Notes under the pieces: generated by a model
Told to the model about the DNA's origin: nothing
Databases searched by the model: none
What the model saw: only the letters and a program-made list of their open reading frames with translations
Assembly (NCBI GenBank): GCA_965203465.1
Contig: CBDBCR010000004.1
Location: forward strand, 14,277 to 78,276
DNA length: 64,000 bases
Direction: 5' to 3'
Source: Nitrosopumilaceae archaeon
GTDB lineage: Archaea > Thermoproteota > Nitrososphaeria > Nitrososphaerales > Nitrosopumilaceae
Shown here: in pieces, positions 10,334 to 59,970 of the stretch
Numbering within the stretch: position 1 is the stretch's first letter
Layout: every line of letters starts with the position of its first letter
Program-made: the position numbers and the translations under genes

Positions 10334-10666
10334 TTTCGGGCCAGGCGCAGCCTCCTTTCGTAAACCGGGCCGTGATCGCACAGGTGCGAAATCTGCGGCG
10401 TGGGGGTCTTTTGAGCCGTTTGATCGATTCTTCCGCGGTCTTTAACGTCGCGGCTTCCGTCGCCATTCCTATACGAGCGCACGGCTTCTCCCCGTCGGCC
10501 AGGGGGGCTCAACCGCGCTCTTTTCTTCGGTTGCCTCCGAACGGCTTTGCCCCGTGCAGCCGTGCCGTCCGGCAATTCGCGGACGCTTTGGGCGGCCCGG
10601 GCAGATTGCGTCGCCGGATCGCGCACGGCCTATACTTAAAACGACGAGGACGAACCCGCAGAATAC

Positions 10667-12245
10667 GATGAATCGACTCGCGGGCCCCATGATCGCAGAG
10701 CATCTGCGCGAACAAAACCCGTGGTGGCTGGACGGGGCATGGGACGAGAAAGACGCGGAGCTGGGGGCGTGGCGCTCCTCGCCGCTGAGGTGCGATCCCC
10801 GGCTGCGCCGCGAGATAGAATACCACTCGGAGCCGTCCAACACGACGGTCTATTCGGTGCGCGGCCCGCTCGGGGCGGGGAAGACCACCATGATAAAGAT
10901 GCAGATCCGCGACCTGATTGCCGGCGGCGCCTGCCCGTGGAACGTGGCGTATTGCTCGTTCGATCTAGGCGGCGAGCCGGCCGACGTGGCCGAGGCGGTC
11001 AAGGCGTACCTTGAGCTGAGCCGCCGGCGCCGTGACGGGCGGCGCTCCTTCCTGTTCCTGGACGAGCTGTCGAACGTGCTGCATTGGCAAAAGGGGGTGA
11101 AATGGCTGGTGGACGCCGGCCTCTTGCGCGACTTCATGCCTCGGCCATCTCCTTGAGCCTGACGCAAGGTGAAATGGCTGGTGGACGCCGGCCTCTTGCG
11201 CGACTTTACGGTGGTGACCGCCGGTTCGACGTCTGCGGACATCAGGAAAGCGACAGAGCTGATGCCCGGCCGGAGGGGGAGGGTGGCGGGCGGCCACGAC
11301 AGGATTCTGTTCCCGATGGGGTTCGGGGATTTTGCCTGCATGATGGACGGAGACGTGCGGGCGATACTGGAGGGCGGCCGGGGCGGGGACCGGCTCTTGG
11401 CCGGCCTGCTGGGGGGCGAGATAGGCGAGGCCGTCGACCGGCTGTCGGCGCACCGCCCCGAGCTGGACAGGCTGCTGGCAGAGTACGCGGTAACCGGGGG
11501 CTTGCCTGCCGTCGTGAACGCAAAGGCGGCGTCCGGCCGCATTCCGGACGGCGCGTACGCGGACTGTGTGGGCAGAATCGCCGAGCAGTGGAGGCAAGCG
11601 TCGGGGAGCGAGGCGCCGCTGGGGCGGCTCGCCGGCGCCGTGGCCGAAAGCGCGGGCCGCCCGTTCTCCTGGAGCCAACTCGCCAAGGACGCCTCTTTGG
11701 GGGGTGCGGGGGCCGCAGCAGAGTGCGTGCAGACGCTGCAAGACATGTTCGTCCTGCACGTGCTGCACGGGTACGACGCTGCGGGAATGCCCGATGCGGA
11801 CGGCAGGAAAAAGGCGTACTTTGGCGATCCGTTCGTGCGCCATGCATTCGGCGCGCCCCGGGAGGGCGGGGGCTTTGGCGCGTCGCTGCGGCGCGCCGGC
11901 GGCGAGCCGGGAATGGGCAGCATAGTGGAGGGCGCCGTCTGCGACTGCCTGGTCCGGCTCGCGCTCCGGTCCGGCTGCAACTTCCTGCAGGATTATTCGG
12001 ACAGCCTCTTTTACTGGCAGGACGGCGAGGGCCGGGAGCTGGATTTCGTGCTGCGCACCCCCGAATACATGGCGCCCGTCGATGTGCGGTTCCGGCAGAC
12101 ACTGGGCGGGCGGGATCTGGCCCCCGTCGCCCGGTTCTTGGACGAGGCCCATGCCGAAAAGGGCATCGTCGTCTCAAAGTCCGCGCTGGAGGAAAAGGCA
12201 GACTACGCGGTGGTGCCCGCGTGCATCTTTCTGCTAGGCGCCTGA
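10667..12245 (+). pseudogene. AAA+ ATPase/DUF4143 (COG1373-like) interrupted by a 72-bp insertion
   Basis: NPWW, Walker A GPLGAGKTT, Walker B FLFLDE, TGGLP, YFGDP, ELDFV; in-frame TGA at 11154-11156 lies within the inserted segment. Confidence 0.85.
11096..11206. repeat. 39-bp exact direct repeat flanking a 33-bp foreign segment
   Basis: GGTGAAATGGCTGGTGGACGCCGGCCTCTTGCGCGACTT at 11096-11134 and 11168-11206. Confidence 0.95.
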
Positions 12246-12377
12246 CGCGCGGCCCCCTGGTCGGTTCAATGGGCGCCGGGGCCGGAGCGCGCCGCTGGAT
12301 CTGGACTGGGATACGGCGGCCGCCGCGGTGGGCCGAAAAGCTGCGCGAGTGCGGCGGGGGCGTGGGGCGGCGGCCCG

Positions 12378-13199
12378 GTGATGGCGCCGTGGCTGCAGGA
12401 AGGCGGTCTGGAGGCGCTGGTTCCGGGCGGCGGGGACTGGATGACCGTGGCCGTCTCCGTCAAAAATGGCGTGCCGGAGGCGCGGTGCGACTGCGGGCAG
12501 GCGGGGCCGTACTGCTCCCACTCGATAGTGGTCATGGCTTACGCGGCCGCCAACGCGGACTATCTGAGGGCGGTGCGCGCCGCAGAAGACGAGGGGATAA
12601 GGGAGGCGGCCAAAATCGCCGAGCCAGAGTACAGAGAGGCGCTGGCCGATGCGGCCCTGGGCGAGGATCCGGCGGACCGGTCGGGGCTGCGCCACATGCA
12701 GCTGACGACGCGGTGCCTCCCCCCGCGCGGCATCGACTACGGGCGCTCGCTCGACATGGGCTACGTCGGCCTGTCGGCGGGCTGCTTTCTGGAAGAGTCT
12801 GTCGACATCGACTTTGACACGGTGGGGCAGATCGCCAGGCGGTTCGCGGCCTCGGGGGACCTGGCAGAGGCGGCGCGGATATACTGCGTCGTGGCAGAGA
12901 CCATAGCGAAGAACGTCGCCATTACGGACGACTCCAACGCGCACTATTCGACGTCGCTCAAGACGGCGCTCGAGGACTTGGGCAGGTGCATGGTGGGCCG
13001 GGCGGGGCGGCCCAGGAAAAAGATGCCCGCCGGCGAGCGCAAAAAGCGCATCTCTTGGCTGGTGCGGCGCGTGGCACTCGACGATCCGGACTTTTTCACC
13101 GAGGACTTTGAGGCGGCGCTCGATTCGGTGTGCGTCGCGCCGGGGGACAGGGAGTGGAGGAGGGAACAGGAGAGGCTGCGCTCTGGATCGACTTTATGA
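12378..13199 (+). CDS. SWIM zinc-finger protein, paralogue 2 (true start probably ~12295, with small indels upstream)
   Basis: CDCGQAGPYCSH; very similar to 9419-10333. Confidence 0.75.
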   Translation: MMAPWLQEGGLEALVPGGGDWMTVAVSVKNGVPEARCDCGQAGPYCSHSIVVMAYAAANADYLRAVRAAEDEGIREAAKIAEPEYREALADAALGEDPADRSGLRHMQLTTRCLPPRGIDYGRSLDMGYVGLSAGCFLEESVDIDFDTVGQIARRFAASGDLAEAARIYCVVAETIAKNVAITDDSNAHYSTSLKTALEDLGRCMVGRAGRPRKKMPAGERKKRISWLVRRVALDDPDFFTEDFEAALDSVCVAPGDREWRREQERLRSGSTL

Positions 13200-13276
13200 G
13201 GACGGCTTGGACTCCACGATCCAAACACAACAGGCATCTTTAGAGTCAATGAGTAAACTCACAAGCTGGTGTTTTC

Positions 13277-13355
13277 TAGAGTCCATGCGTAAACGCGCCG
13301 GTTGGGGTTTTCTAGGCACGGATCTGCGAGATTTGGGAGATTACGCATAACCTCT
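13277..13355. mobile_element. 79-bp MITE-like element, copy 1
   Basis: Imperfect terminal inverted repeats TAGAGTCCATGCGTAA / TTACGCATAACCTCT; 77/79 identical to 19941-20019; a third TIR-like end at 13241-13258. Confidence 0.7.
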
Positions 13356-13453: not shown

Positions 13454-15553
13454 TCATGATTTTGTAGTGCCTGCTGGAACAAACAACCCCAATCCGAAGT
13501 GCTTTCCGTATCCTAGCGCCAACGGACCTGTGAACGGCTCTTTGAAATTTATCTCTAGAGAACGCCCGATGCTGGTTATGGGGCCTTTGCCGTTGCGCAT
13601 TGTTTTGAATCGCCGGGTTGGCGTTTTTATGTTCCTGTGTGATACAACTACCAATTCTGAGTCGACGCGTACGCTTTCGACATCTCTTGACATCTCTTTC
13701 TCTATTTGGTCTTTGATTCCAGTTTTCTTTTTCATGTGCCACGGGGTGTAATACGGCGTTACCGACTTCCATTTTTGCGATCTTGCAAACAGGCTGCACT
13801 TCTGACCAAGTTCGACCATCCCGTCGAATCTATTGAAATGCATACGCATTCTCATACTGTTGTCGAACATGTCTGTGATCCCGCTTAGGGCCTGCATTTC
13901 TACACGCCCAAACCCGTATCTGGCGTACACCGCAACGTGGTCGATAAACCCGTCTGCATCTGCATCGTACGGCAACCACAACGCGTGACTGTGGTTGAGT
14001 GGCTCGCTGCTGTGGCCAGATATGGTGGCCGGTATGTTGGATCTCCCGAACAGCCGCTGAAACTTCGACATTGCGGCACGCCTCATAAGATCTGCCACAT
14101 CCACAGTCTTCTCAATCGGGGGGCGATCTCCGAGCAGCGTAAAATATGCCGCTTTGGGCATTTCTCTCGGTGCAAACAAACCGAAACCGGCCTTCTTGTT
14201 ATTCCCTATGGCGAACGCCCCCTTTCTGGCCGCCTTGAATTCTATCTCCAAGTGGGCGGTTCTGCCTGTTGCCCTGGGCAGGCCGTTCCAATAAGGCTCT
14301 TTTCTAGAATCCACAAACGCCACATCGCCTGTTATGCCGTCCTTGCCCAGTGCAGCTATCGCGGCTTCGGCAACATCCGAGCGCAACTCCCGGTGAGCCC
14401 TGACGCGCAAGGCCTTGTCTGCCGCCGTCTTGTCTTTAGCAACGTTTTGTTCCTTGCCGACGTTCAGATCTACCGGCATTACCGAACACCACCGTCTGGA
14501 CCATCCTTTGTACATCTTTTGCACTGGATCGTTGGAATCTTCGAGGCGTATCTGGTACTCGACATCTCCTATCTTTACAAATTGGCCCGATACGTGGGAG
14601 AGAAACCTGTCCCTGACGCCTTCGTCAGTCTTGTGAGAGATCAGAAAAGCTATGCGCCGCACGATGCCGTCTGAATGTTGGCCCAATGTGGGCATGACGA
14701 CCGCGTCTGCATGCAGCATGCTGTTTCCGTCGTACTCGTTTTTCATCCTGTAAAGCTGCTCGACTGCCAGGGGAATCTGGCTGCTGGTCAAGGCCCCTCT
14801 GTTTCCAGCAGCATCGAAAATCCTAAACACGTAGATGTCGGGAGATGGCGTGTGGGTTCTGTACCTCTGAGTGTGATATTTTCTGATCGGGGACGGCTTG
14901 TAAAAACTGTCTCCTGACACCCTGCTTTCAAACTCGCCATGGTGCCTTCTGGCGTCTTCTAGAAGGCCCTCGGCAGGGACTTCGATTCTTTCGCTCCCCT
15001 GCTCGTCTATCACGTAGCACTGCCCGTCGGCTGCGTGTGGGGATTCACGCACGCTGCCGTGCACTGCAACGGGGTCTATTCCCCATCCGAGGACCGGGAT
15101 CTCTTTCGCGAGCTCGCACAGAGTTTCAATGCTATCTGGCTCCTCGTGTGGAATCTCCCAAACATACGTTGCCGTCTCTGTTATGTAGGGCTTCATTGTC
15201 TTGCCGGTGGTCATAGTTTTTTCATCCTTGGGCTCCTTGCCTTCTGCGTACGCCTTGCTGATCACGTCGCCGTCGTTGTTGGGCACGAATATGGTGTATT
15301 CGCACCCCTTGCAACGGTGTGCGTAGATCTTGGGGGGCCCAAATTTCTCGAAAAATTTCAGAGCTTTGTCGCCCCTGTGGAACTCGACCCTTCCAGAGTT
15401 CTGGTGCAGCGCCGCGACGAACGCCAAGAAAAGCCTCCTGGGCGACGGCGGCCATTCCTTCCCGTGGTACCGTCCGAGCAGAAATCTGACTTGGAATGCG
15501 AGATATCTTGGTTTCTTAGCCATTTGCAGCTCTTGCGACATCGATTCCACCAC
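13454..15553 (-). CDS. csb2: Type I-G Cas5/Cas6 fusion Csb2, long form (cassette A)
   Basis: GRYHGKEWPPSPRRLF N-terminus; WKSVTP; C-terminal GPLALGYGKHFGLGLF G-loop. Confidence 0.9.
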   Translation of the reverse strand: MVESMSQELQMAKKPRYLAFQVRFLLGRYHGKEWPPSPRRLFLAFVAALHQNSGRVEFHRGDKALKFFEKFGPPKIYAHRCKGCEYTIFVPNNDGDVISKAYAEGKEPKDEKTMTTGKTMKPYITETATYVWEIPHEEPDSIETLCELAKEIPVLGWGIDPVAVHGSVRESPHAADGQCYVIDEQGSERIEVPAEGLLEDARRHHGEFESRVSGDSFYKPSPIRKYHTQRYRTHTPSPDIYVFRIFDAAGNRGALTSSQIPLAVEQLYRMKNEYDGNSMLHADAVVMPTLGQHSDGIVRRIAFLISHKTDEGVRDRFLSHVSGQFVKIGDVEYQIRLEDSNDPVQKMYKGWSRRWCSVMPVDLNVGKEQNVAKDKTAADKALRVRAHRELRSDVAEAAIAALGKDGITGDVAFVDSRKEPYWNGLPRATGRTAHLEIEFKAARKGAFAIGNNKKAGFGLFAPREMPKAAYFTLLGDRPPIEKTVDVADLMRRAAMSKFQRLFGRSNIPATISGHSSEPLNHSHALWLPYDADADGFIDHVAVYARYGFGRVEMQALSGITDMFDNSMRMRMHFNRFDGMVELGQKCSLFARSQKWKSVTPYYTPWHMKKKTGIKDQIEKEMSRDVESVRVDSELVVVSHRNIKTPTRRFKTMRNGKGPITSIGRSLEINFKEPFTGPLALGYGKHFGLGLFVPAGTTKS

Positions 15554-15563
15554 ACTCAGACAA

Positions 15564-16613
15564 TCATTCGTCTCCGTCTGCCTTTTTCTTATTTTTCTTT
15601 GACATCTTTTCTTTTATCGCCTTTTCTGCCTTTTTCTTCTCAAACCCTGCGCTTCTGTCTTTGCCCACGCCAAAGCCTTCCGCTGCCTTTTGCGCCCATT
15701 TTAGAACCTCGTCATGATCGAAGCTCACATCCTCGCGCTTCCCGTCAGGATACACAAGATTCCACTCTGGATCCCCTTTCTCTGGATCGCGTACGAGAAG
15801 GCACCCTTGTCTTAGATCCCATTCGCGTATAGAGGATGCCGCCACCATGGCTAGGCCCAAAACGTACCTCTGTAGGGCCTCTTGCTCGTTGTCGGATCTG
15901 ATCTTCCTCAGAGCCGCAAAGTTCACCACGACATCTCTTCGTATGGGGCCGCGGGCTATGATGCCTCCGTGCGTGCCGACTGCCGGAGCTTCGTTAAAGC
16001 CGATCTCCGACCTGGCGTCTTTTTCCTTTTTGTCTTTTGCCTCGTTTAGCAGATCCTCGTCGGTGTATTTTATCGGCGGAAAGTATTGTGCGGATCTGCT
16101 CAGCTCGTCCACATCGTACGCCCGTATTGTGGACGAGACTATGCGGGGAACCTTTACTTGCGTGTTCCTGGAATCCCACAGTCCAAACACCAGCGATGTG
16201 GGGGCTATCTTGGCAACGGCCGACGCGTTTCCTGCTTTTAGAGATTTCAGGGCTTCCGTAAGATCCTCGCTGATCGTAGAATGCCTGAGCAGGGCGTCCG
16301 CTGCCCTGTGGCCCACCTCGCACAAGTTCACCGCGTAGTCTGCCGCACTTATCACTACTTGGGGGACAAGCTTGCTGTACGGTTCTTTCATAAAAACGGG
16401 CTCCATCCTGTTCGCCTGCGAGCCTACGCTGTCTACCAAACAAGTCTGCGTCCCGTCTTTCATGGCGTCTATGCAATATGGGCTGTTGGAATCTTTCCCG
16501 CCAGCGAATGTGGGGGGAAAGAACGGCGAATCCTTGCCTTCTACTGGAATCAAGTACTCCCTCAAGACTAGCGCAGAAGCGTCTCCGCTTATCCACTTGT
16601 CCGGCTCTAGCAT
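15564..16613 (-). CDS. cas7: Type I-G Cas7 (Csb1) (cassette A)
   Basis: FFPPTF, DSVGSQANRME, HRAADA, PTSLVFGLWDS, LRQGCLL. Confidence 0.92.
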   Translation of the reverse strand: MLEPDKWISGDASALVLREYLIPVEGKDSPFFPPTFAGGKDSNSPYCIDAMKDGTQTCLVDSVGSQANRMEPVFMKEPYSKLVPQVVISAADYAVNLCEVGHRAADALLRHSTISEDLTEALKSLKAGNASAVAKIAPTSLVFGLWDSRNTQVKVPRIVSSTIRAYDVDELSRSAQYFPPIKYTDEDLLNEAKDKKEKDARSEIGFNEAPAVGTHGGIIARGPIRRDVVVNFAALRKIRSDNEQEALQRYVLGLAMVAASSIREWDLRQGCLLVRDPEKGDPEWNLVYPDGKREDVSFDHDEVLKWAQKAAEGFGVGKDRSAGFEKKKAEKAIKEKMSKKNKKKADGDE

Positions 16614-17350
16614 GGCGTGTCTGCCTCGGACGCTTCTATAAATGTCTTTTTTTGACCGCTCTTTCTAGTACGGGCCCTGAAGTGGCGCGTGCCTGGAAAC
16701 TCCAGAGCGCCTGCCGCTGCGGCCTTGGCTACGATGTTTGGCAGCGGCACCGCCCACGCATTGTAGCAATACTCTTCCCGTGATCTTCTGCTGTTGTGCC
16801 AGCCGTATGCCTGTACCCCCAAGTACGCGAAAAACTCCACCACCGGAAACGATCTCCGCTTCATCTTCTGCTCGTTTAGAGAAAACCCCACATCCAGAGT
16901 GTTCCACGAGGTGTGTGTATCAAACCCCGACGGCACATCGATCACGCTGCTGCCCCACAACTCTTTTGCGTCGCTCGTTTCGTGCACCTTCATGTGTTCT
17001 ATCCACCTGCCTACCACGTCGTGGGATTTTTCCTGTCCTGCAAACAGCTTTATTTCCGGCCTGTTGTCAAAATGTTCCCAGAAATCTAGACGCGTGTTTA
17101 TTTTTCCTCCAAGGTGAATGGGAGATGCGCTTTCATCGCCGGCCGGTATGTCGATGCGGGACGCCTCGTTGACTATTGCCTGTATGGGATCTTTTTGTTC
17201 TGTTTCCAACACGAATTCGCCTCCGTCAAAACTCCCGCGAACTGCGCCAAGAACGCGATCTACAGCGTGCAGTATGCCACAGCACGCAAAGAAATGACCG
17301 GGATTGAGCAAGTCTACCGGCAATCTGGTCTCGATCGCATTCCCGTTCAT
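16607..17350 (-). CDS. cas8: Type I-G small Cas8-like large subunit (cassette A)
   Basis: VDLLNPGHFFACCG N-terminus, DVGFS, VEFFAYLGVQ; ATGA-coupled to cas3. Confidence 0.8.
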   Translation of the reverse strand: MNGNAIETRLPVDLLNPGHFFACCGILHAVDRVLGAVRGSFDGGEFVLETEQKDPIQAIVNEASRIDIPAGDESASPIHLGGKINTRLDFWEHFDNRPEIKLFAGQEKSHDVVGRWIEHMKVHETSDAKELWGSSVIDVPSGFDTHTSWNTLDVGFSLNEQKMKRRSFPVVEFFAYLGVQAYGWHNSRRSREEYCYNAWAVPLPNIVAKAAAAGALEFPGTRHFRARTRKSGQKKTFIEASEADTPC

Positions 17351-19854
17351 CGTGACTTCCCCACATTGTTTGACGCACTCCAGTCGGCGCCTCTCAAAAG
17401 TCCCTCCAACCACGCCAGCCCGAACGCGCCGAATCTTTTTTGCAAGTTTGCGTATCGCTCGGCCACGCGGGTTAGTATCTGATCGTCACCGTCCAAGTTC
17501 ATGGCTTTGTTGTCCCTTGCCTCTGGTCTGAAGCACGGCCTTGCCCATCCGTGGTGGGAGGCCACCAGGTGGAGGACCAGATCAGCTTCATCGCCAAGTT
17601 CGTCGCGGGGCATTTTCTCAAGCATGTGCGTGGAGCACAGTTCATGCCGAAACCTGCCCATGTTGAGTGGACTCTTCCGGCTAGCGGTTTTTGCAAGGGG
17701 CATTTTGTCGGGTTCTACATGCATCCACGCTTGCCACTTCTCGTTTTCTTTTCCTTTGTCGTGGTACCCCGCCGCTGTTATTATGGCATTTTTCACGGCC
17801 TCTGGCATATTTGAGTACGGCTTTACCATGTCTGCAGCTTTTTCTTTCACGTCTTTTAGATGATCGTCCAGATTCTGTTCTACCAACGTGCGCGACTGCT
17901 GTCCAATCCTCCTTGCATAGTATCGGATCTTTGTATCTGGAGAGTCCTCGTCTGGCTTTGTGATGTCGATCTCGTACACTAGCTTCATTTTAGAGCTGTC
18001 GAGCCATTTGCCGATCTCACGCACTTTCGGCAAACCCCCGATCTGTTTTATCGCATCCTGCGCATCGTCCATCTTCTCTACCAAAACTCTGCACCGGGAA
18101 TACCCGCTCAGACCTTCGGTGTCTTGTCCGTTGCTCGAAATGTCTGCGACATCTCTCACTGGCGAGGTTTCTCCAGGACTCAGGAACCCGCGCTTGTCGA
18201 GGCCGCCAAAATCCGTGGGCAACACAACAGTCGAGAAATACAGATCTTCTTTTTTGACATCTGACGTTGTCTGCTTTTTACACTGCCCGTCGTCTTTTAT
18301 TACCATTATCTGCCCGCTTCTACTTTTTAGAAACTTGTACACTTCGTCAGTGTACTCGCGTAGCGTCTCTTTGGGCAGGATCCTGTAGTTGTCGAACACA
18401 TCACCAGCATCATCATCATTTTTCAAGTACTTTGCGTCTTCTCTCCAACACACGTACGTGTCTGGTCTGGCCTTGTCTTCGTCCCCACGTAGCCAAAACC
18501 TCACATGAGGCCTTGACCGGTATTCTCTATATATGGAAGTCATGGACCATGAATCCAGCAAGTCTTTTGTCAATGGCTGGGTTTTAGGCTTGGACGCAAA
18601 CATCCTGTCCATGTCGCCTTCGCCCAGACCTTCCAACACCTTGCTTAGGGCCTGCGGACTTCCATCGTGCATATTACGTTCAACCAGAAACTTGACCGTC
18701 TCTGCCGCAGATCCTTTTTCGTTGCCGTTATAGATTAGAGTGGCGGTGGCTTTTCGGTCTTTCCCTCCAGTGCGATTGAGGCGCCCAAGCCTCTGTATGA
18801 GAGAATCCAGCGTTGTGGCATCGCATACCATGTGATCCGCATCAAAGTCTGCGCCCACCTCGCCGGCGGATGTGGCCACCATGTACGATGGCTCTCCGCC
18901 GTGTTTGCCTAGGAAAGCCTTGTATGCTTTTTTCTCGGACAACCTGTCTCGTTCAAACCCGCGTATAGTGCCGGTCAAAACCACCACCTCGTGTTCTTTC
19001 TCTAGGTTTTTTGATATTTTTAGGGCGTCTTTGGGACTCCTTACGTAGATCATGACTCTTCCAGGTTTTGACTCTGCGTGTCTTGCTATCTCGTCTGCCA
19101 CGTTGACTTGCGGGGGAATTTTCTTCAACTCCAGCTTCTTCACCGCCCTATACCTGTCTTCCACTACAGCGTTGTGCATGTCGTCGCTCCCCAACCTTAT
19201 GATGTTGTTGCCCTTTCTGTGTTGTGTAGCTGACATGAAGAGTGTTCTTGGTGGGTACAGACGATCGGCGTTTTTCACGTTGGATATGTCCTCCACATCT
19301 CTAAGAAGATTTTCCATGGCTGGCGATAGATGTGTCTCGTCCAGAACTAGGAGCGAATCCTGTCCCAAGAGTCCGGCGTAAAAAGATCTGACCTTTCTTC
19401 CTACTCCGTACCCAGAGAACAAGAGGCGGCTTCCTATCATGTCTATGGTGCCTATTATTATGGCCGGCATGTGTGGCTCTTCCAGCCACTTTCTGTTGTC
19501 TTCCAGGCCTCCGCCTCCTCGGAGTTTGCTTATGTTCAGGCTCCCGATCTTGGATCTGTAGTTGTTGTCTGCTTCTATTTTTTTGCGCAGTTTGTCTGCT
19601 TCATCGGAAGCCTGATCAACTATCACGCGCCTATCCACAATATAGACAAGTCTTGTAGGCACGTGATCATGTCCGCGAATTCTTGTATGTGTTAAGGCAA
19701 GCATCCATATGTGCATGATCGATGTTTTGCCCAGACCTGTGGGAATGTCCATCGTATCGGGAATGTCGCCTTTTACGAGCATGTCGAACATCCTTTGTTG
19801 CCATGGGTATGGCGCATGCCCGGTTATGGCCTCGAAATCCTCGGCAAAGCCCAT
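17347..19854 (-). CDS. cas3: Type I-G Cas3 helicase with C-terminal HD nuclease (cassette A)
   Basis: PYPWQ, PTGLGKT, VDRRVIVDQ, DETHL, QRLGRLNR; C-terminal HDKGK...RHE...HHG...ADW. Confidence 0.95.
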   Translation of the reverse strand: MGFAEDFEAITGHAPYPWQQRMFDMLVKGDIPDTMDIPTGLGKTSIMHIWMLALTHTRIRGHDHVPTRLVYIVDRRVIVDQASDEADKLRKKIEADNNYRSKIGSLNISKLRGGGGLEDNRKWLEEPHMPAIIIGTIDMIGSRLLFSGYGVGRKVRSFYAGLLGQDSLLVLDETHLSPAMENLLRDVEDISNVKNADRLYPPRTLFMSATQHRKGNNIIRLGSDDMHNAVVEDRYRAVKKLELKKIPPQVNVADEIARHAESKPGRVMIYVRSPKDALKISKNLEKEHEVVVLTGTIRGFERDRLSEKKAYKAFLGKHGGEPSYMVATSAGEVGADFDADHMVCDATTLDSLIQRLGRLNRTGGKDRKATATLIYNGNEKGSAAETVKFLVERNMHDGSPQALSKVLEGLGEGDMDRMFASKPKTQPLTKDLLDSWSMTSIYREYRSRPHVRFWLRGDEDKARPDTYVCWREDAKYLKNDDDAGDVFDNYRILPKETLREYTDEVYKFLKSRSGQIMVIKDDGQCKKQTTSDVKKEDLYFSTVVLPTDFGGLDKRGFLSPGETSPVRDVADISSNGQDTEGLSGYSRCRVLVEKMDDAQDAIKQIGGLPKVREIGKWLDSSKMKLVYEIDITKPDEDSPDTKIRYYARRIGQQSRTLVEQNLDDHLKDVKEKAADMVKPYSNMPEAVKNAIITAAGYHDKGKENEKWQAWMHVEPDKMPLAKTASRKSPLNMGRFRHELCSTHMLEKMPRDELGDEADLVLHLVASHHGWARPCFRPEARDNKAMNLDGDDQILTRVAERYANLQKRFGAFGLAWLEGLLRGADWSASNNVGKSR

Positions 19855-19940
19855 CACCAATCTGATTCTGGCCCATTTATTATATTTTTACTGGGATTGG
19901 GCGCTTTGCTGATGCGAACTATGGGGTCGTGCTTTCCTAT

Positions 19941-20019
19941 TAGAGTCTATGCGTAAACGCGCCGGTTGGGGTTTTCTAGGCACGGATCTGCGAGATTCGG
20001 GAGATTACGCATAACCTCT
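19941..20019. mobile_element. 79-bp MITE-like element, copy 2
   Basis: TAGAGTCTATGCGTAA...TTACGCATAACCTCT(A), 14/16 inverted match; same orientation as copy 1. Confidence 0.7.
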
Positions 20020-20047
20020 ATTAAACGACACAGATCGTTTGGCACGC

Positions 20048-20298
20048 CATACACCGGAGTCGCAACTTAATAGTTGCGGAAGGAGGCACGACCTCCGGAA
20101 AAAAGCCCTGGGCTAGGGCGCTTCAATGGGGCCGCAACCTGATAGTTGCGGAATGGTGCACTCGGCCAATCACGTGGCCAAGGAACTTCAGCAGCTTCAA
20201 TGGGGCCGCAACTTGATAGTTGCGGACGCCGCCCGGCACTGTGCCAATTCCGGCACCGAGCGGCTTCAATGGGGCCGTAGCATAACAGCTGCGGAAGA
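20048..20298 (-). CRISPR. Mini CRISPR array: 4 degenerate repeats, 3 spacers
   Basis: Repeats at ~20048-20083 (partial), 20120-20155, 20194-20229, 20263-20298 related to the main repeat; spacers 36, 38, 33 bp. Confidence 0.9.
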
Positions 20299-20614
20299 AG
20301 CGTGCCAACGATGTCAATTCAGTGTCCGTTATCGGCTTGTAAGTGTTCACGTCATCCAGACCCGTTTGCCAGTACTTTGGCATCTCTGCTATATATTCTG
20401 ACTCAGGTTCCACCTGGTATGCACTCACCCCCTCCAGCTCGATCGTGCCTAGCGATTAGATCTCGTGTGTGAGCCCGTGCCTAGCAGAACGAGATTCGTG
20501 GGGGGAGCTGAGTGCATACTTCCACCTGTCGTGACGCGCGTGAAAAAAACACACTCTTGGTCAAGAGAGTGTGTGAAAACCTGACGCAGGCCGACGTGTA
20601 AGTTTTCTGCGTCG

Positions 20615-21610
20615 TTATCGGACGCCGAGCCCGTGCCCCGCAGGCGTTCCTGCGCCCACCGTGCGAAATTTTCCGTCGCTAAATATTCGCGCCACGATCA
20701 CATCTAGCGCACCGCAGTCGCGCATAGATGCGGCAAGTCGTGCTATGTTTTTTGCACGATCATCTGTGTCTGCTACGGGATCATTGCTCGCGCGCTTGTG
20801 CCTTTGTGGGGGGTATTGCGCATCAGCAATCTGCCTGAGCTCTTTCATCCGCAAAAGAACGCGCACTGCGTCCAGCGGCAACGGCTTCTCCCAGATCGGC
20901 CAAGCTACCGCCTCTCCGGTCGATCCGCATCCCGTGGTGCTGAGCCCCCCGCGTTCCGGCGCCGACGTGAACTCTGATATTCCGAGTGCGATAAGCGGCT
21001 CCGCCCCGGTCACGGGCGCTCTGAACCCCACGGGGTCGGATGCGCGCAGGGCATGCTTCCGTCGCTCGCGCCAGTCAAGTCTAAATGGCCGCAGGCTCGA
21101 GCTGCCTTGCTGCTTTTCTTCCGGACGATCCCATGTCTTGAACAGTCCTCTTCGTATGAAGTCTGCCATGCCTTCCTCGCGCATGCCCAAGGCGGCGTCG
21201 AAATCCCTGCCAAAGTACTGTTGCCCTGCCCCGAGTGTAAGGCACAAGGCACCCGGCCTCATCGTGCCGTCTTTGGTAAGGGCGCCGTCCGACAACAGGG
21301 ACGCCACAACATCGCGGTCTGTTCTAGACAGAATGCTTGGAAGCTCTGAAGGCTCGATGCCGTTGACGTTCTTTTTTCCGATCTGCATTTTCTTGCCCAG
21401 CGAGGAAATGCCGCTGGCCGCGGCATCGCACACCGCATCGACGCTCTGATCCCCGCACGTTAGCAGGGACGCCTTGCCTTGCGACCATTTCGACTCGGGC
21501 TTCCAACAGGGCACGGACTTTTCAAGAGCCCTGAGCAACCCGATCAGCGCCAGCACTGCTGCCAGACTGTCCTGCTGTAGGCCGCGGAGCGCGATCTCTT
21601 GGCGACTCAC
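20615..21610 (-). CDS. Type I-G Cas8g/Csb3-like subunit (cassette B)
   Basis: IALRGLQQDSLAAVLALIGLLRAL N-terminus, GAGQQYF, WPIWEKPL; overlaps the cas3 stop. Confidence 0.75.
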   Translation of the reverse strand: MSRQEIALRGLQQDSLAAVLALIGLLRALEKSVPCWKPESKWSQGKASLLTCGDQSVDAVCDAAASGISSLGKKMQIGKKNVNGIEPSELPSILSRTDRDVVASLLSDGALTKDGTMRPGALCLTLGAGQQYFGRDFDAALGMREEGMADFIRRGLFKTWDRPEEKQQGSSSLRPFRLDWRERRKHALRASDPVGFRAPVTGAEPLIALGISEFTSAPERGGLSTTGCGSTGEAVAWPIWEKPLPLDAVRVLLRMKELRQIADAQYPPQRHKRASNDPVADTDDRAKNIARLAASMRDCGALDVIVARIFSDGKFRTVGAGTPAGHGLGVR

Positions 21611-24486
21611 AGTTCCTCCCTCCCCGCCGCTCGCGATAGTCCGCGTGCTGCCTTCGACTCGGCACCGAGCCCGCCATTGATCCGTTCCTCTGCCGACCTG
21701 CGACCGTCAGCAAGCCGGAGCACGGCCTCCATATGTGCAAGCTTCCACGGCCCGTGCCTGGCATATACGCGCACGGCAAGACTGCACCACCACGGATCTA
21801 CGCCTTCTGTCCACATGGCTGGCGGAAAAACGGGCCTGCCGTACCCGTGGTGCGTGCCAATCAACCACAGGACCAGGTCTTCATCGGCTGCATCCTTTAC
21901 CTCCTTTTCTTCCCTTGCAGACAGCACCGAGTGCCATTCGTGCCTGTATCCGTTGGGCATGCGAGCCAGGCGCCTGCACTCGCGCATCTCCTGCCGGTCC
22001 GTAGGGCCGGCGCTCTTTGCAATGATGTCCATCCCTTCGACTCTTTCCTGAGTCGTGCCGTGCAGCACCGCCTGCATGATCTTCTCCCGCTTACCTATGT
22101 CGTGGAACTTCGCCGCGATCCGTACTGCCGCAGCGTCGTCCTCGGACAGCCCGGACTTTCTGGCAAATTCCTCGGCCGTCTTCATGACCCCCGCCAGATG
22201 CTCGTCGAGCGTGACCGTTCCAGTCCGGTCAATCCTTCCGTCCCAGCCGCGGCTGTAGTCCGCCACCAGGCCTGCCGCGTCCTTCGATATGTATTCCGTG
22301 GCGTTGCGGCAAAGATCTGGTTCGAGCGCCGTTTTGAACGCTACCCCGTACACTGTCCCGTCGCGCATCCTGACGACGTCGGTCTTGCCCCCGCGCCCTG
22401 CAACCTGGCGCCACGCATCGGGCAGGCCCCCTATCCCGGCAACCACCCTTCCGACCTTTGCATTCCTGCTCTCGTCCGCGACAGCGCCTCTCAGATCGTT
22501 CCACGCAGCGTCGCTTGCGACGTCCTTGACAGGCCCTCCGTCGATCCAGATGGCCATCTTGCCGCGCTGGACCAGGTGAGCCTGCAGGCTAATGTCCTCT
22601 GCGGGGCACGACCCTTCAGCCCCAGTCCAGCCGTACTCGTCGCAGCCGCCGCGTGACGACGGAACCACGATCGTGTCGCCGGGCCGAATGTCGCCGGCGC
22701 CAACCTCTTGGATCCTGCCCCGGTTGCCCACCCTTACTGCCATTGCGGGCGTGTTCTGGCCTCCGCCTCGTGCGACTCGCTGGCCCTCGATGTCTGCCAG
22801 ATCGTCGACGGAGGGATCGGACTTCCGTGCGCCGCTTGCGGCGCCGTCTGTGACATCTCTGCCGTGCAGTCCTTCGAGCCACTTTCGTACGTGCCAGACC
22901 GGCATCTCGATCGCTTCCAGCGCGGATGGAGGGATCAGATTCGCGGACATGCCCACTTCGTCTAGATCTTCGCCCTGCCGCCACACCACGCGGACGTCGG
23001 CGGGGCTAGTGCTCTTGTCCGGCAGTCCGTGAAGGAACAAGGCCGCTTCAGGATCCGGCGATCCCGGCGGCCTCGTTTTGTGCCACGCCCAGAGGTACGC
23101 GGGAAGCAGGGTGACGGATGCCCTTTTGGGCGACGACATCTCTTCGATCATGCCGTCAGGCGGCATTTGGAACGATTTTACGCCAAAATCCACCATTTTG
23201 CTGTCGCCGGCGGCTTTTACAAGCCATGACCACGTCGCCTTGGTGGCCGTGCCGTACACGGGATCGTCGGCTTTTTCGCCCACGTCCCGATCGTCGGCCA
23301 CTATGACGGCGGCAGAATCGTCTTCGTTGCCGATCCTGTTTAGCCTCCCGAATCTCTGCAGCAGTGAGTCGAGCGGAGCCGCCTGCGTGAGTAGCGCGTC
23401 AAACGTAATGTCGGCGCCGGCTTCTATGCACTGCGTCGACACAGTGACGGATTTCATCCGCGTGTCCGAATCTGGGCGGAGACTCTCAGATATGCGCGCA
23501 GTCAGAATGTCCTTGCACAGGGGCCGGGATCTGCCTGTGAGCAGGCGAGCTTCGTAGCCGAGTCTTTCTGCGTCGGCGCGCACGTTGTTGAACACCTCTC
23601 TTGCCGCGCCGACCGTGTTGACTACGACGCCTATGCGACGCATGTTCCCCTCGGACATGATCGTCTTGGCGTGTCTTGCAAGCGCGGCAGGCGATCTGCG
23701 CCGGCCCGCAACCTCCAGTGTGGCAGTCTTGGACTTGGACATGCGCTCGCCCATCTCGTCTATCATGGCGGGCTTTTGGTCTGGATTTGGAAACGCCCCG
23801 TTTGCCCCGGCGCGCAGCGTCGCGCTCATCTGCACCACGCGTCCTTGAGTCCCCCACCCCCTCTCGTCCCGCAGGTCTTTAGTCGACTGCAAAAGCCGCA
23901 TGAATGGCGCGGACAGGTGGGCCTCGTCGAGTATGTAGAGCGTGTCGGTTCCAAGTAGCCCTGCATGCACCGGCCTCATCTTCCAAGACACGCCGTACCC
24001 TCGGAACAGCAGCCTTGAGCCCACTTGGTCTATAGTGGACAGCACGATGGTCGGATCGGACGGCGACCCGTTCCACCCAGAGTCCCGAGGCATGCCTCCC
24101 CGGAGCCTCTTTACGGTGAGCGGATCCCCCGACGACAGGCTTCTCAATGCGTCTCCGGCAGCTCTGGCGGCCCCGCTCCCGCGCCCCCCGTTCAGCGCCT
24201 CGGCGATGACCTTGGCGTGACCGTACGAATCGTCCACCGACACTCGGCGATCTACCACCATGGCGACCCTGACCGGGGCGGTCCTGTTGGCCGATCTTGC
24301 TTGGCATGCCAAGTGCCACACGGCCACGTCAAGCACGGATGTCTTGCCAGACGCGGTGGGCATCGATATGGCTTCCGGCCACCCGCCGTCCATCACCCTC
24401 CTTGCAAGGGCCGACTGCCACTCGAACGGATCCCTGCCGTGTATGTCGTGGTAGAGTGCCTTGAACGAGATCGTCCCGTGGTCCAC
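21607..24486 (-). CDS. cas3: Type I-G Cas3 with C-terminal HD domain (cassette B)
   Basis: PFEWQ, PTASGKT, VDRR, DEAHL, QRFGRLNR, HDIGK, RHE, HHG, LRLAD; GTG start 24486. Confidence 0.95.
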   Translation of the reverse strand: MDHGTISFKALYHDIHGRDPFEWQSALARRVMDGGWPEAISMPTASGKTSVLDVAVWHLACQARSANRTAPVRVAMVVDRRVSVDDSYGHAKVIAEALNGGRGSGAARAAGDALRSLSSGDPLTVKRLRGGMPRDSGWNGSPSDPTIVLSTIDQVGSRLLFRGYGVSWKMRPVHAGLLGTDTLYILDEAHLSAPFMRLLQSTKDLRDERGWGTQGRVVQMSATLRAGANGAFPNPDQKPAMIDEMGERMSKSKTATLEVAGRRRSPAALARHAKTIMSEGNMRRIGVVVNTVGAAREVFNNVRADAERLGYEARLLTGRSRPLCKDILTARISESLRPDSDTRMKSVTVSTQCIEAGADITFDALLTQAAPLDSLLQRFGRLNRIGNEDDSAAVIVADDRDVGEKADDPVYGTATKATWSWLVKAAGDSKMVDFGVKSFQMPPDGMIEEMSSPKRASVTLLPAYLWAWHKTRPPGSPDPEAALFLHGLPDKSTSPADVRVVWRQGEDLDEVGMSANLIPPSALEAIEMPVWHVRKWLEGLHGRDVTDGAASGARKSDPSVDDLADIEGQRVARGGGQNTPAMAVRVGNRGRIQEVGAGDIRPGDTIVVPSSRGGCDEYGWTGAEGSCPAEDISLQAHLVQRGKMAIWIDGGPVKDVASDAAWNDLRGAVADESRNAKVGRVVAGIGGLPDAWRQVAGRGGKTDVVRMRDGTVYGVAFKTALEPDLCRNATEYISKDAAGLVADYSRGWDGRIDRTGTVTLDEHLAGVMKTAEEFARKSGLSEDDAAAVRIAAKFHDIGKREKIMQAVLHGTTQERVEGMDIIAKSAGPTDRQEMRECRRLARMPNGYRHEWHSVLSAREEKEVKDAADEDLVLWLIGTHHGYGRPVFPPAMWTEGVDPWWCSLAVRVYARHGPWKLAHMEAVLRLADGRRSAEERINGGLGAESKAARGLSRAAGREEL

Positions 24487-24490
24487 GGCC

Positions 24491-25897
24491 CTACGACTCC
24501 TCGGCCATACACAGACCGAGTCCGCGATACCTGCCTGCCCCGACCATGACGGGCCCCGGCACGGGCACGCCGAACTCGATTCTGGCGTGCCAGAGCCCGC
24601 CGCGACCCGCATGCTTGACCCACTTTGCGGCGTGCAGCACGCCGTAAGACATGCCTGCGCGTGAGACCTCGACCGACACTGGCCTGGGCAGGCCCACCCT
24701 TTCAACGCTGTCTGCTATGCCTATCTCCTGGCCGACGCCGGCCTTGGCGTACCTGTCGACTGCGATCGGGGTGACCGTAACCCACGCCTTTGACGATCTC
24801 GTGTACCTGTCGGTCTGGAGGCTGAGCCTGTCATCTGCATGTCCGAGCTGTAGGCGCAGACCGCCGGGCAATTCGATCTCAAACCCGGGCTCTGCGACCT
24901 TTCCTACAGCCCTGTCTATGACTCTCTGTTCGGGAGATTCGGCCGACACGTCAGACGGCATTACCACGGAAAGACCCAAGAGCCCGCCGTCGGAGTGACG
25001 CCAGCCTACGTCGAGCATTGGGACTATGGCCATGTGCGATCGCTGCGACGGGCCGCCGCCGGGGGCGATGCCGGATACGACTTCCGGCACGGGCGACGCG
25101 GCCCCGCCAATTATGACCGAGCGCACTGCTTTGGCAACCAGCGGAAACGACTCTGGCGCCGGCGCGTCTTCCATTACCGCCAGAACCGACCACGAATTCC
25201 ATATGGGTGACGGATGCCCCGCGCCTGCGTCGCCGGCCAGCATTGTGTAGCGAGGCCAGGCATCGGGCGGCCTGGGATGCCACACGACGCCCTCTTTTTC
25301 GGCGCGCTCGTACCCCTCAAGCAGGTCGTCGAGCCTCCCACTGGACGGGCACCGTATTCGTACGTTGCCGCTGTCGTCCGGCACGAACCGCGTGCGGCCA
25401 TGCGTCTTCCTGCTCGTCCTAACCGACATCCGCACCAGCGACGACGAATGGCCGAGGCGCGGGACACATGCGGCAAGATCTTCCAGCTCGCGCACAACTT
25501 CGGGAGGCGGTTCGGAATCCCACGACATGGTGACGGTTTGATCGTCGTCTGGCAGAACGACTGCTGGAAACCACCTTGGTTTTCGCGTGACGATTGGCAA
25601 ACCCGGCCCCATGTCGCCCATGTATCGCCCTTCGTTGCTTTTGTCTTGGACGGGCACATAGAATTCGCGCACGTCCCTCCGGCTGTGCGGCGGGCATGCG
25701 ACTTCGGGCGGCTTTTGAGACTCCATCCATCGTAGCGCGTCTTTGCCACGGCCGCCGGGCCTTGACGACATGGCGTCGACTAGTGCAGAGAAGAGCCTAT
25801 CTGGGCTCGGGGGCCACTCGGCCGTTTTGTCGTCGTTTATCTCTGCCGCGTAGCACACTCCCGAAAGGTACTCTACTTCGATCGAGAGCATTGGCAT
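24491..25897 (-). CDS. csb2: Type I-G Csb2 (Cas5/6) (cassette B)
   Basis: EWPPSPDRLFSALV, LGHSSSLV, WVTVTP, GPVMVGAGRYRGLGLC. Confidence 0.92.
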   Translation of the reverse strand: MPMLSIEVEYLSGVCYAAEINDDKTAEWPPSPDRLFSALVDAMSSRPGGRGKDALRWMESQKPPEVACPPHSRRDVREFYVPVQDKSNEGRYMGDMGPGLPIVTRKPRWFPAVVLPDDDQTVTMSWDSEPPPEVVRELEDLAACVPRLGHSSSLVRMSVRTSRKTHGRTRFVPDDSGNVRIRCPSSGRLDDLLEGYERAEKEGVVWHPRPPDAWPRYTMLAGDAGAGHPSPIWNSWSVLAVMEDAPAPESFPLVAKAVRSVIIGGAASPVPEVVSGIAPGGGPSQRSHMAIVPMLDVGWRHSDGGLLGLSVVMPSDVSAESPEQRVIDRAVGKVAEPGFEIELPGGLRLQLGHADDRLSLQTDRYTRSSKAWVTVTPIAVDRYAKAGVGQEIGIADSVERVGLPRPVSVEVSRAGMSYGVLHAAKWVKHAGRGGLWHARIEFGVPVPGPVMVGAGRYRGLGLCMAEES

Positions 25898-27087
25898 CAG
25901 TCCGCACTAGCAGTTACGCCTACTTTGTCTAGCATGCGTTGACGCGACTTTTTGATGAGGTCTACCAGGCTCTTGCTGGGCCTTATGACCGTCGGCTCTT
26001 TTTTCCAAGCGTGCGGTTCTAGCTCCTTGGACGATTCTTCCAGCCATCCAACCACCTCCATCACGTCAAACTTGAACGGCTTCGTCGTGCCGTCTGCCTC
26101 TACCAACTCCCACTCGGCCCCTCCGTCTTGAGTTAGATCGCACCTAGATCTGAGCGAAGAGTACGTTGGCTCGCCTTCGGCACCCAAGATCGCAAGAGAC
26201 GCCAAGGCGGCTCTGGCCGCACTTTCGTCAGCTTTTTGAAAGCGGAGCCTGCGCAATCCTGCAAGCGTGATCACCGTTGTTTGTTTCGCATGATCTACGG
26301 TGACCCCCAGGCTCGGGATTTCTTTACTTACTATGCTCCCGTACCCGTACTCTGACGGCCTTTTGCCGTTTTCGTCTAGGCGCATCTCTCCGCCTTTGAT
26401 GGATATCTTTACATCCTTGCCAACGTTGAACACGTCCGTCTTTGATGCGGGGCTTTTGCATTCCTGCACATTGATGCCTACGATCTCTGACGTTATGCAA
26501 CGCTGGAACCTTGCGGTAAGCGTGCCTCCCCAGTATGACTTCCACGCCCCGTACACCAAACTCGTGGTGCTGTACTTTAGTATGGGGGTTGCGTTACGCG
26601 TTGTAGCTGATGCGATCTCGCCGCCTATGGACGTTTTCGGAAACTGGCTTCCGTCCAACACTGAGTCCCGTATTGCGGCGTCAAACACTCTGTGTGGCAG
26701 CTCCATGGAGGTCACTACGCCAATGTCGGCGATGTCCGCTTCGCCCGTAAAATCCACTGCGACTTTTGGGATCGCCGGTATGCGGTCTTTTGCTATCGAA
26801 GTCATGCCTTTGCCGTCAGTCGATTTTGTTCGGTACTCGCCATTCGTGAGATTCACCAGAGATTCCTCCATTCTGGCCGCCTGCGACTGCACTGAGTCAA
26901 GCAGCACGCACTTTACGTTTTCGTCGTTGATGCGCCGAGTCTCGTAAGAGTGGGCGCCCCATTTTTTCTTTTCTGGATGCGGGTACGTTGGAGGGGCCAG
27001 ATAGTCGCCCTTTCCGCCGGCTGGCTGTAGCCTGCGGACGCGCCTCAGGGCGCTGGCTGTCTCTACCGCCTCTGCAAGCAGTTTCAT
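25897..27087 (-). CDS. cas7: Type I-G Cas7 (Csb1) (cassette B)
   Basis: LQPAGGKGD..PPTY, LLDSVQSQA.RME, PHRVFDA, LRSRCDL. Confidence 0.92.
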   Translation of the reverse strand: MKLLAEAVETASALRRVRRLQPAGGKGDYLAPPTYPHPEKKKWGAHSYETRRINDENVKCVLLDSVQSQAARMEESLVNLTNGEYRTKSTDGKGMTSIAKDRIPAIPKVAVDFTGEADIADIGVVTSMELPHRVFDAAIRDSVLDGSQFPKTSIGGEIASATTRNATPILKYSTTSLVYGAWKSYWGGTLTARFQRCITSEIVGINVQECKSPASKTDVFNVGKDVKISIKGGEMRLDENGKRPSEYGYGSIVSKEIPSLGVTVDHAKQTTVITLAGLRRLRFQKADESAARAALASLAILGAEGEPTYSSLRSRCDLTQDGGAEWELVEADGTTKPFKFDVMEVVGWLEESSKELEPHAWKKEPTVIRPSKSLVDLIKKSRQRMLDKVGVTASAD

Positions 27088-27722
27088 GCCGGATCGTCTA
27101 TGGGTGGTCTAAAATGTGTTTTGGTTTGGGGTTCGCATTCGCCCGTCCCTGCTGCTCCACCTGGGACGGCTAACGCTACCCGCAGCGCGTCCGGCGAACG
27201 GTTTGATGGGCCAGGCAGACGTAGCCGCCGGCGAAATCGGCCATTTCCGCCTACGCTTCGGGCGGCCTTGGCCCGGGAACCGGGGCGTTGAACACGGCCG
27301 ATCCGGCGGCCCCCGCTAGGACGCGTCCCGCTCTCTGCCACGCAGCGTCTCGGCTACGCCTGCACACGAATTTGCGCCTCAGAAAGCCCGTCCCGCTAGG
27401 ACCATCTGCCTCAAGCCTCCCGCAACGCACCGAGCGACGGCGTACCGTGCCTTGGATTGTATGTGGTAGGCGAATAGATGCCCGCTACGCTACTGATAAC
27501 AATAAATGTAGACAGATTCCGGCCCCTCTATGGAAAGCCCGACAAAGGCGATCGGAGAATGCAGGTCTTACCTGTTCAACGCCGGTCTGCAAAAGCGCGA
27601 GAAATGCCGTACTGCGTCCAACGAACCTAAAACTGGGAGCCGGCTCAAGCCTGATCTTAACCAGGTCCGCAATGCCCCGGTTGCGCAGATCGCCAGAATC
27701 GGGGCAGAGATGTGGTAAGGGA

Positions 27723-34677: not shown

Positions 34678-34846
34678 CCTGCCCGGGCGCCTGAATCCGC
34701 TCTGGTCGGTGCGGAATTTCCCGGCAGGCGGCATACTGTGCGCGGTTTCTGCACGCGCGCCTGCATCGGCATGCGGGCGGACACTTCCGTATATTAACAA
34801 ACTGCGAGCGCCTCAGCCTGCGCGCCGCAACCCACAGCCGCTCGCG
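34678..34846 (-). promoter_or_regulatory. CRISPR leader
   Basis: Between cas2 stop and the first repeat in transcription sense; TATA-like TTAATATA on the minus strand at ~34790-34797. Confidence 0.65.
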
Positions 34847-59941: not shown

Positions 59942-59970
59942 AGCAGGTGGGTGTCTCTGGGTTCAGTTTT

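Follow-up and report, generated by a model that had tools for sequence, protein, structure and literature searches.

Spacer-sized scars in the genome of an uncultured Nitrosopumilaceae archaeon, one of them splitting an ATPase gene, are probably off-target integrations by its type I-G CRISPR adaptation proteins

We analysed 64,000 nucleotides (nt) of a Nitrosopumilaceae archaeon (assembly GCA_965203465.1, contig CBDBCR010000004.1, positions 14,277 to 78,276 of the forward strand), hereafter "the window." In this stretch, a gene for an AAA_14/DUF4143 ATPase is split by a 72-bp insertion, the size of one unit of the CRISPR array located in the same window. The genome carries four other scars of the same build. 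We propose that all five are probably ectopic (off-target) spacer integrations by Cas4-Cas1/Cas2, which includes the only Cas1 of this genome, the catalysis itself being what we infer. We favor this explanation because the scars have the predicted size and recur, because the adaptation module is intact and unique, and because the inserts are mostly non-genomic. A first-pass annotation of the window had suggested that the local Cas4-Cas1/Cas2 acted as a mutagen at the ATPase gene, a proposal now supported by alleles with and without the insertion, by the lack of a template for the insert, by the four sister scars, and by the sole, intact Cas1.

RESULTS

A 72-bp insertion splits an AAA_14/DUF4143 ATPase gene

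Sequence inspection and a repeat finder both show that 11096-11134 and 11168-11206 are the two copies of an exact direct repeat of 39 nt (coordinates are those of the window unless a contig, C1 to C4, is named). The two copies enclose 33 nt and lie 72 nt apart, from start to start. The elements of the insertion and of the split gene are as follows.

11096-11134, unstranded: copy of the target site on the left of the insert (39 nt, exact); the site is present once only in the contigs of runs X1 and X4 (see below), and the true distance between the staggered cuts is probably 36-37
11135-11167, unstranded: the insert, which measures 33 nt when delimited by the exact copies and 36 nt for a site of 36 bp, with a G+C fraction of 0.61 and TGA at 11154 and 11160
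11168-11206, unstranded: copy of the target site on the right of the insert; in run X9, this 39-nt node of the graph has double depth
10668-11156, plus strand: 5' part of the ATPase gene, from Met 10668 through 162 codons to the TGA at 11154-11156 within the insert, with the AAA_14 match
11169-12245, plus strand: 3' part of the split gene (358 codons), which keeps the reading frame of the 5' part and has the DUF4143 match

The net gain of 72 bp falls on the mode of the units of the resident array (70-75 bp, mode 72), even though the exact duplication has 39 bp and not 36. The first-pass annotation had described an exact 39-bp duplication around 33 bp of unrelated DNA, with a net gain of 72 bp, equal to one array unit, and an in-frame stop. 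The sequence, the repeat finder, the translation, and the measured array units bear this out. The 33-nt insert occurs only once in the window when up to 3 mismatches are allowed (none of 100 shuffles matched) and only once in the whole genome of 2,260,718 bp, where the runner-up is an exact word of 16 nt. Hence, the insert has no template nearby or in the genome, and an origin from nearby DNA, which would have spoken against the first-pass proposal, is not what we found.

The insertion brings two in-frame TGA codons (11154-11156 and 11160-11162), with the peptide VKWLVDAGLLRDF encoded both before and after them. The single-frame translation of 10554-12245 reads ...LHWQKGVKWLVDAGLLRDF-MPRPSP*A*RK-VKWLVDAGLLRDFTVV... 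across the site. Two Pfam matches above the curated cut-offs identify the product as an AAA_14/DUF4143 ATPase: AAA_14 (PF13173) in the 5' part (E 1.1e-9, covering only profile positions 3-88 of 129) and DUF4143 (PF13635) in the 3' part (E 5.7e-9). The genome encodes three intact paralogues of 495-510 aa, whose identity to the 3' part is 33-37%.

57944-59449, minus strand: intact AAA_14/DUF4143 paralogue
60179-61561, plus strand: intact AAA_14/DUF4143 paralogue
C1:167270-168346: intact AAA_14/DUF4143 paralogue

The first two are adjacent and divergent, on the contig of the CRISPR locus. An alignment places the duplicated peptide, in both its copies, over a single block of columns of two intact paralogues, which carry the segment once, and the phase of the periodicity in G+C content at third codon positions (GC3) does not change across the insertion site. 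The domains on both sides, the paralogue alignment, and the continuous GC3 phase thus place the insertion within a real gene running from Met 10668 to the stop at 12245, of about 501 codons once the 72 bp are subtracted. Since the stops fall after codon 162, downstream of a P-loop-like GAGKT and an LFLDE motif, the split gene is, judging from its sequence, most likely null. Its loss may be tolerated because it is one of four paralogues. At the DNA level the gene was not found in 40 relatives, in which only two matches of 30-33 nt (E ~5e-4) were retrieved.

Filled and empty alleles occur in related populations

Two metagenome runs from different studies contain the site without the insertion. 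A 3976-nt contig of run X1 (marine metagenome, study P1; depth 36) and a 607-nt contig of run X4 (sponge metagenome, study P2; depth 8.6) both join position 11095 to 11168. They skip 72 bp, and the 39 letters of the site fit on either side of the junction, i.e., these contigs have one copy of the site and lack the insert. Their pieces are 95-99+% alike to the window (bands of the run table), with 3 and 9 differences in the two pieces flanking the site for the X1 contig, and 5 and 8 for the X4 contig. In contrast to these empty alleles, run X9 (share of words 0.97) gave graph pieces through the filled site.

10400-11125: graph piece at depth 9.1
11105-11197: 93-nt unitig with the whole insert, depth 9.7
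39-nt repeated node: depth 19
11177-12400: graph piece at depth 10

As the insert has the depth of its flanks and the repeated node has twice that depth, the filled allele makes up about 100% of the X9 sample. The empty-site contigs from two other studies carry one target copy, and the insertion is therefore derived; it is a strain-level polymorphism and no chimera. Reads spanning the site were the check that the first-pass annotation had asked for, and both the X9 de Bruijn assembly and the empty site in relatives speak for a genuine insertion. No contig of run X11 spans the site.

Five scars of array-unit size in one genome

All four contigs were searched for direct repeats that are exact, have at least 24 nt, and lie 30-400 apart, and loci with a single pair were kept. 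This resulted in 34 isolated two-copy loci, 14 of which have a duplication of at least 30 nt and a non-overlapping insert of at least 15 nt; the other 20 have shorter repeats or are head-to-tail tandems. Five of the 14 comparable pairs have a period of 71-74, a duplication of 37-41 nt, and an insert of 31-35 nt.

Event A, C1:421176-421290: duplication 41, insert 33, period 74; upstream of an HtrA-like protease gene
Event B, C1:818675-818784: duplication 38, insert 34, period 72; among small open reading frames (ORFs)
Event C, C3:596454-596564: duplication 40, insert 31, period 71; at the rpoA stop codon, before a convergent HNH gene
Event D, C4:5305-5413: duplication 37, insert 35, period 72; upstream of an ORF of 981+ aa
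Event E, C4:25372: duplication 39, insert 33, period 72; inside the ATPase gene

Five of 14 pairs within the 70-75 range, which was set by the array and not by the events, corresponds to a binomial P of 2.4e-6. Hence, the search for other such repeats, also proposed at first pass, added four isolated scars of array-unit size to the one in the ATPase gene. An imperfect scan (31/36 matches, periods 40-130) gave 15 isolated loci, with a period of 71-74 in seven: the five events, a real variant mini-array, and one weak 27-nt case, which we rejected. The 78-kb contig of the CRISPR locus makes up 3.5% of the genome and holds two of the five events (P=0.011).

Only event E is intragenic. Events A and D are in stretches without codon periodicity, and event B is where the reading frame changes. 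One intragenic event in five is what random insertion followed by selection would be expected to leave. Genomes of the same genus are 72-78% identical in rpoA and their alignments end at the gene end, such that they are uninformative on the empty sites of events A and C. A transposase-like helix-turn-helix (HTH) gene adjoins event D. Searches of Rfam at the five sites and at the source of insert A (see below) gave nothing, the sole match being a tRNA ~790 bp from event A.

Three further loci were considered and rejected as members of the class: C3:214394 (duplication 27 nt, insert 46 nt), C1:677017 (30/47), and C3:745578 (the 27-nt imperfect match). The tandem repeats of period 72-73 at C1:802381, C2:5505, C3:706809, and C3:818380 were considered as amplified units but set aside, because the units of each are identical and because these loci resemble repeats within coding sequence or the 3' regions of paralogous genes.

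Most inserts have no second copy in the genome

The five inserts have no similarity to one another or to array spacers beyond chance words of 8-13 nt. Inserts B-E have no second copy in this genome, which is 96.9% complete, and their mean G+C (0.528) is lower than that of genomic 33-mers (0.650; P=0.013) and close to that of the array spacers (0.59). Insert A (G+C 0.82) is different: it matches the intergenic stretch C1:116472-116504, 305 kb away, at 32 of 33 positions. The match at the source extends 2 nt each way, taking in the final two bases of the left duplicate as well as the two that open the right one. Since the source match runs 2 nt further on each side, the sequences indicate that the piece transferred in event A was 37 nt long and that the real duplication is 37 and not 41.

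The ATPase insert had no exact match in IMG/VR or in JGI metagenome contigs, and 150 genomes of the family contained no match even with 3 mismatches allowed. The insert with its surroundings (51 nt) had no blastn match in phage and plasmid collections at E up to 1. A search of IMG/VR for the cores (22 nt) of inserts B, C, and D likewise gave no exact match, and the core of insert D had none at up to 2 mismatches in the 150 family genomes.

Three of the five inserts (B, C, and E) have TTN at one end, in an insecure orientation. The TTG of the ATPase insert had been read at first pass as an untrimmed TTN protospacer adjacent motif (PAM). This reading is not supported, as the orientation is uncertain and the searches above found no protospacer.

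The resident type I-G system has one intact adaptation module

The CRISPR locus of the window comprises the following features.

30836-34677, minus strand: CRISPR array, with a repeat of 36 nt, 51 regular spacers (34-39 nt), and units that measure 70-75 bp
34678-34846, minus strand: leader, between cas2 and the first repeat; its CRISPR RNA (crRNA) strand ends in GGCAGG directly 5' of the repeat
34847-35131, minus strand: cas2 (94 aa), an ORF with Pfam CRISPR_Cas2 at E 7.2e-16
35136-36779, minus strand: cas4-cas1 fusion (547 aa), Pfam Cas_Cas1 at E 2.5e-86 and Cas_Cas4 at E 8.2e-23
13454-27087, minus strand: two type I-G effector gene sets (Cas_GSU0054, Cas_GSU0053, and Cas3 with an HD domain), from Pfam matches

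The gene content assigns the system to type I-G (formerly I-U), because it combines a Cas4-Cas1 fusion, Cas2, a Cas3 with an HD domain, and the GSU0053 and GSU0054 families. The subtype name follows from these families. This gene set rules out the type V identity that the TTN remark at first pass had hinted at. A whole-genome search gave one Cas1, the Cas4-Cas1 fusion, and both adaptation genes are intact, with strong Pfam matches over products of 547 aa and 94 aa. The effector module is duplicated, and the adaptation module is single. Spacers are most often of 36 nt (34 nt, 3 spacers; 35, 14; 36, 21; 37, 9; 38, 3; 39, 1; n=51). The minus-strand end of the repeat is ATTGAAGC, as printed for the Methanosarcina barkeri I-G repeat in the available part of PMC10504553. 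With this 3' end on the minus strand, the leader adjoins cas2, and the crRNA strand of the repeat is the minus strand, which corrects the first-pass annotation. Neither JGI metagenomes nor species-representative genomes contain an exact match to the 36-nt repeat, and no related arrays were therefore available in which to seek the inserts as spacers.

The array has several peculiarities of its own. Positions 30943-31050 equal 31520-31627, i.e., two consecutive spacers (35 and 37 nt) and their repeat are present twice, as an internal block duplication. At 34506-34677, two repeats are only 2 nt apart and the second has its last 6 nt replaced; next comes a 62-nt stretch with a leader-end-like end, and then the first repeat. 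This arrangement may be a past aberrant integration or rearrangement. The spacer at 34186-34220 is identical (35/35) to C1:333631-333665 of the own chromosome, within the gene of a NucS_C-domain protein. The chromosomal flanks of this self-derived spacer are GCG and ATG, not TTN, without an obvious PAM, so that the one perfect chromosomal match of an array spacer gives no PAM information.

The duplications exceed the repeat length, but the totals do not exceed the array unit

In the array, the identity between neighboring units (51 pairs) continues past the 36-nt repeat for 0 nt in 30 pairs, 1 nt in 15, 2 nt in 3, and 3 nt in 3. The mean, 0.59, is the chance level. The excess over 36 in events A to E is 5, 2, 4, 1, and 3 nt (Mann-Whitney versus the array, P=3.3e-4). 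Still, their totals of 74, 72, 71, 72, and 72 are all inside the range of the array units, and a longer duplication goes with a shorter insert. The excess pattern, the constant totals, and event A together fit a cut distance of 36-37 bp and inserts of 35-38 nt whose ends repeat the adjoining bases of the target. A truly variable stagger of 37-41 bp with undersized inserts of 31-35 nt fits less well.

DISCUSSION

How would the adaptation proteins have produced these scars? The type I-G complex (the Cas4-Cas1 fusion with Cas2) would insert a spacer-sized fragment of ~36 nt at a position of the chromosome other than a CRISPR repeat. A pair of transesterifications, one per strand and ~36-37 bp apart, and the subsequent gap filling would leave a copy of the target, the insert, and another copy of the target, with a gain of 72 bp, exactly one array unit. 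In the ATPase gene, this event would yield a truncated protein of 162 residues. The four other scars, in or at the edge of intergenic DNA, would result from the same process.

Several observations weigh against this explanation. The exact duplications are of 39 bp in the ATPase gene and 37-41 bp over the five events, never 36. The inserts, when strictly delimited, have 33, 34, 31, 35, and 33 nt, and even the shortest of the 51 array spacers is longer than three of them. The sites are no closer to the repeat, or to repeat plus leader, than random sites: for the repeat, the sum of their best placements is 71, for a null of 71.2 (P=0.58), and they are no more prone to hairpins than random sites (P=0.51). 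At first pass, the start of the ATPase site, GGTGAAATGG, had been compared with the GCTTCAATGG of the repeat (7/10), together with a TTGCG near both ends and an overall match of 12/36. These letters are correct, but the likeness is at chance level: 12/36 is below the mean of 14.3 for a best-of-shift null (P=0.99). The accompanying term "neo-array" is also generous: there is no sign that coding sequence duplicated in this way, with this match to the repeat, works as a CRISPR repeat, and each scar has one insert. The flank on the leader side is weakly leader-like (P=0.008 for the first 3 leader nt, 0.027 for 6 nt, and 0.047 for 10 nt), which speaks for the explanation, but this is a modest signal from post hoc tests that provides leads only; the bases directly before the site are GGCAGG in event A and TGCAGG in event C, for a real leader end of GGCAGG. 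The only insert with a known source, that of event A, is own DNA with no TTN beside the source, and its 2-nt identities at the junctions are equally predicted by template switching. For the ATPase insert, the protospacer was not found and a PAM is thus not demonstrable. Finally, the empty allele is shown for event E only, events A-D rest on one assembly, and run X9 is possibly the source of that assembly, in which case it gives no independent support.

An unlikely alternative is template switching, or microhomology-mediated repair, independent of Cas proteins. A stalled 3' end would copy ~33 nt elsewhere and return ~39 nt upstream. Event A has what this process calls for, namely, an insert whose template lies on the same chromosome, at a distance of 305 kb, and 2 identical nt at either junction, and the 1-5 nt by which the duplications exceed 36 can be read as junctional microhomology. 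However, template switching sets no sizes, yet 5 of 14 pairs have a period of 71-74 (P=2.4e-6), and four of the five inserts, the ATPase one included, are GC-poor and have no template in a genome that is 96.9% complete. A template in own DNA was thus found for event A only and not for the ATPase insert.

The scars could also be the footprint of another integrase or mobile element with a stagger of ~37-41 bp, either with the remainder lost or as a tiny non-autonomous element. This we regard as quite improbable. A target-site duplication around foreign DNA is a general signature of transposition, and there is the transposase-like gene beside event D. Still, the five inserts, 31-35 nt long, have neither shared termini nor similarity, the genome has no second Cas1 or casposase, and the total size is that of the CRISPR unit. 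To our knowledge, prokaryotic elements duplicate far shorter targets; casposons duplicate ~14-15 bp. The shared termini and the short fixed duplication of a transposon or insertion sequence are both missing from the five scars. An artefact, i.e., a chimeric or mis-polished contig, can hardly account for the data, even if all five events are in one assembly and X9 is perhaps its data, because the 93-nt unitig runs through the insert at flank depth with the 39-mer at twice that depth and because the inserts are unique, mutually different, and flanked by exact target duplications, unlike common artefacts.

Ectopic integration of spacers also has precedents. Off-target integration by Cas1-Cas2 into the Escherichia coli genome has been reported in texts citing Nivala et al. 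2018 (10.1101/148544, PMC6698737, PMC7054753). The citing passages refer to E. coli overproducing Cas1-Cas2, and one of them describes natural cases as "circumstantial evidence" only, in two other species. The scars resemble the neo-CRISPR loci of that work (Nivala, Shipman and Church 2018, Nat Microbiol), as these are portrayed in the citing passages, in having a spacer-sized insert outside the array, a duplicated target of repeat length, and a resident adaptation module. They differ in being natural events in an uncultured archaeon with a type I-G Cas4-Cas1, five in one genome with one gene inactivated. They also differ, on the same accounts, in having an empty allele in related populations, sites that are not measurably repeat-like, and duplications 1-5 nt over the repeat.

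The proposed chemistry follows in vitro work. In the sections available of a study of Streptococcus thermophilus type II-A (PMC6895254), each border of the repeat is attacked, on opposite strands, by a 3'-OH end of the prespacer, and the repeat becomes duplicated on repair. The same two-step attack on opposite strands is described in the accessible text on Pyrococcus furiosus Cas1-Cas2 (PMC6698737). The off-target sites in these studies, as far as those sections describe them, share specific features with the repeat or its junction, whereas here there is only a weak leader-like flank (...AGG). The distance between the attacks also differs from that of the ruler experiments in those sections, being slightly over the repeat length or blurred relative to it. 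Also close is the M. barkeri I-G system, for which the consulted part of PMC10504553 gives a prespacer whose 22-bp duplex carries 7-nt 3' overhangs, 36 nt in all, and whose non-PAM end enters on the leader side. It shares with our system the Cas4-Cas1 fusion and the 3' end of the repeat, and its 36 nt are the modal spacer length here. That part of the study describes on-target integration only, and the ectopic inserts give no PAM orientation to compare. Ectopic acquisition in S. thermophilus CRISPR3 (PMC7999890, in the portion available) is likewise away from the leader-proximal repeat but takes place at genuine array repeats, unlike the site in an ordinary gene found here.

On our explanation, these scars are a natural, well-documented instance of a known process, off-target spacer integration, and no new kind of event. 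What is new is the host, an uncultured archaeon of sponge and marine metagenomes, the subtype I-G, the recurrence, the duplications longer than the repeat, and a gene knockout with filled and empty alleles in closely related wild populations. The size signature links the five scars to the resident array. If our explanation is true, they allow the autoimmune or mutational cost of an active adaptation module to be gauged in concrete terms, and they provide data from nature on how a Cas4-Cas1 integrase behaves when no repeat guides it, in terms of cut distance and end identities. The genome-wide test, i.e., the search for isolated direct repeats with the period of the array unit, is applicable to any genome and could find more events and show how new arrays might start.

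A more specific idea, which we put forward tentatively and with some doubt, is that the lineage undergoes recurrent natural mutagenesis (five young scars in 2.26 Mb) that exploits an identity of 1-5 nt between the 3' ends of the prespacer and the target, near a leader-like ...AGG. The last 1-5 nt of the prespacer 3' ends would match the displaced target ends, and this short base pairing would replace repeat recognition and shield the product from disintegration. Such a rule would explain why the duplications are longer than the repeat while the totals are those of the array unit. That short identities may aid ectopic integration is suggested by the source of insert A and by the excess duplication.

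Other loci in the window and the genome

A few loci near the CRISPR locus or of similar periodicity complete the picture. A mini-array of three repeats, of a variant type with at least 2 mismatches, is found at ~20120-20300, between the two effector sets. A remnant array at C1:325400-325560 has two to three degenerate repeats ending in CCCCATTGAAGC, like the main repeat, and the stretch examined around it contains no cas genes. An ORF of 1160 aa (27288-30770), located between the cas genes and the array of the window, matches N6_Mtase, Eco57I and, weakly, MmeI_N, and looks like a type IIG-like restriction-modification enzyme.

Among the tandem repeats set aside above, C3:706809-706966 and C3:818380-818640 are related loci downstream of similar coding ends. 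Their units, identical within each locus, are of 72 and 73 bp in 2.2 and ~4 copies, with a GC-rich hairpin, and the equality of their period with the CRISPR unit is treated as a coincidence. The window also has two intergenic-looking tandems, at 13241-13315 (36 bp, 2.1 copies) and 59966-60047 (34 bp, 2.4 copies), which are unrelated to the CRISPR repeat.

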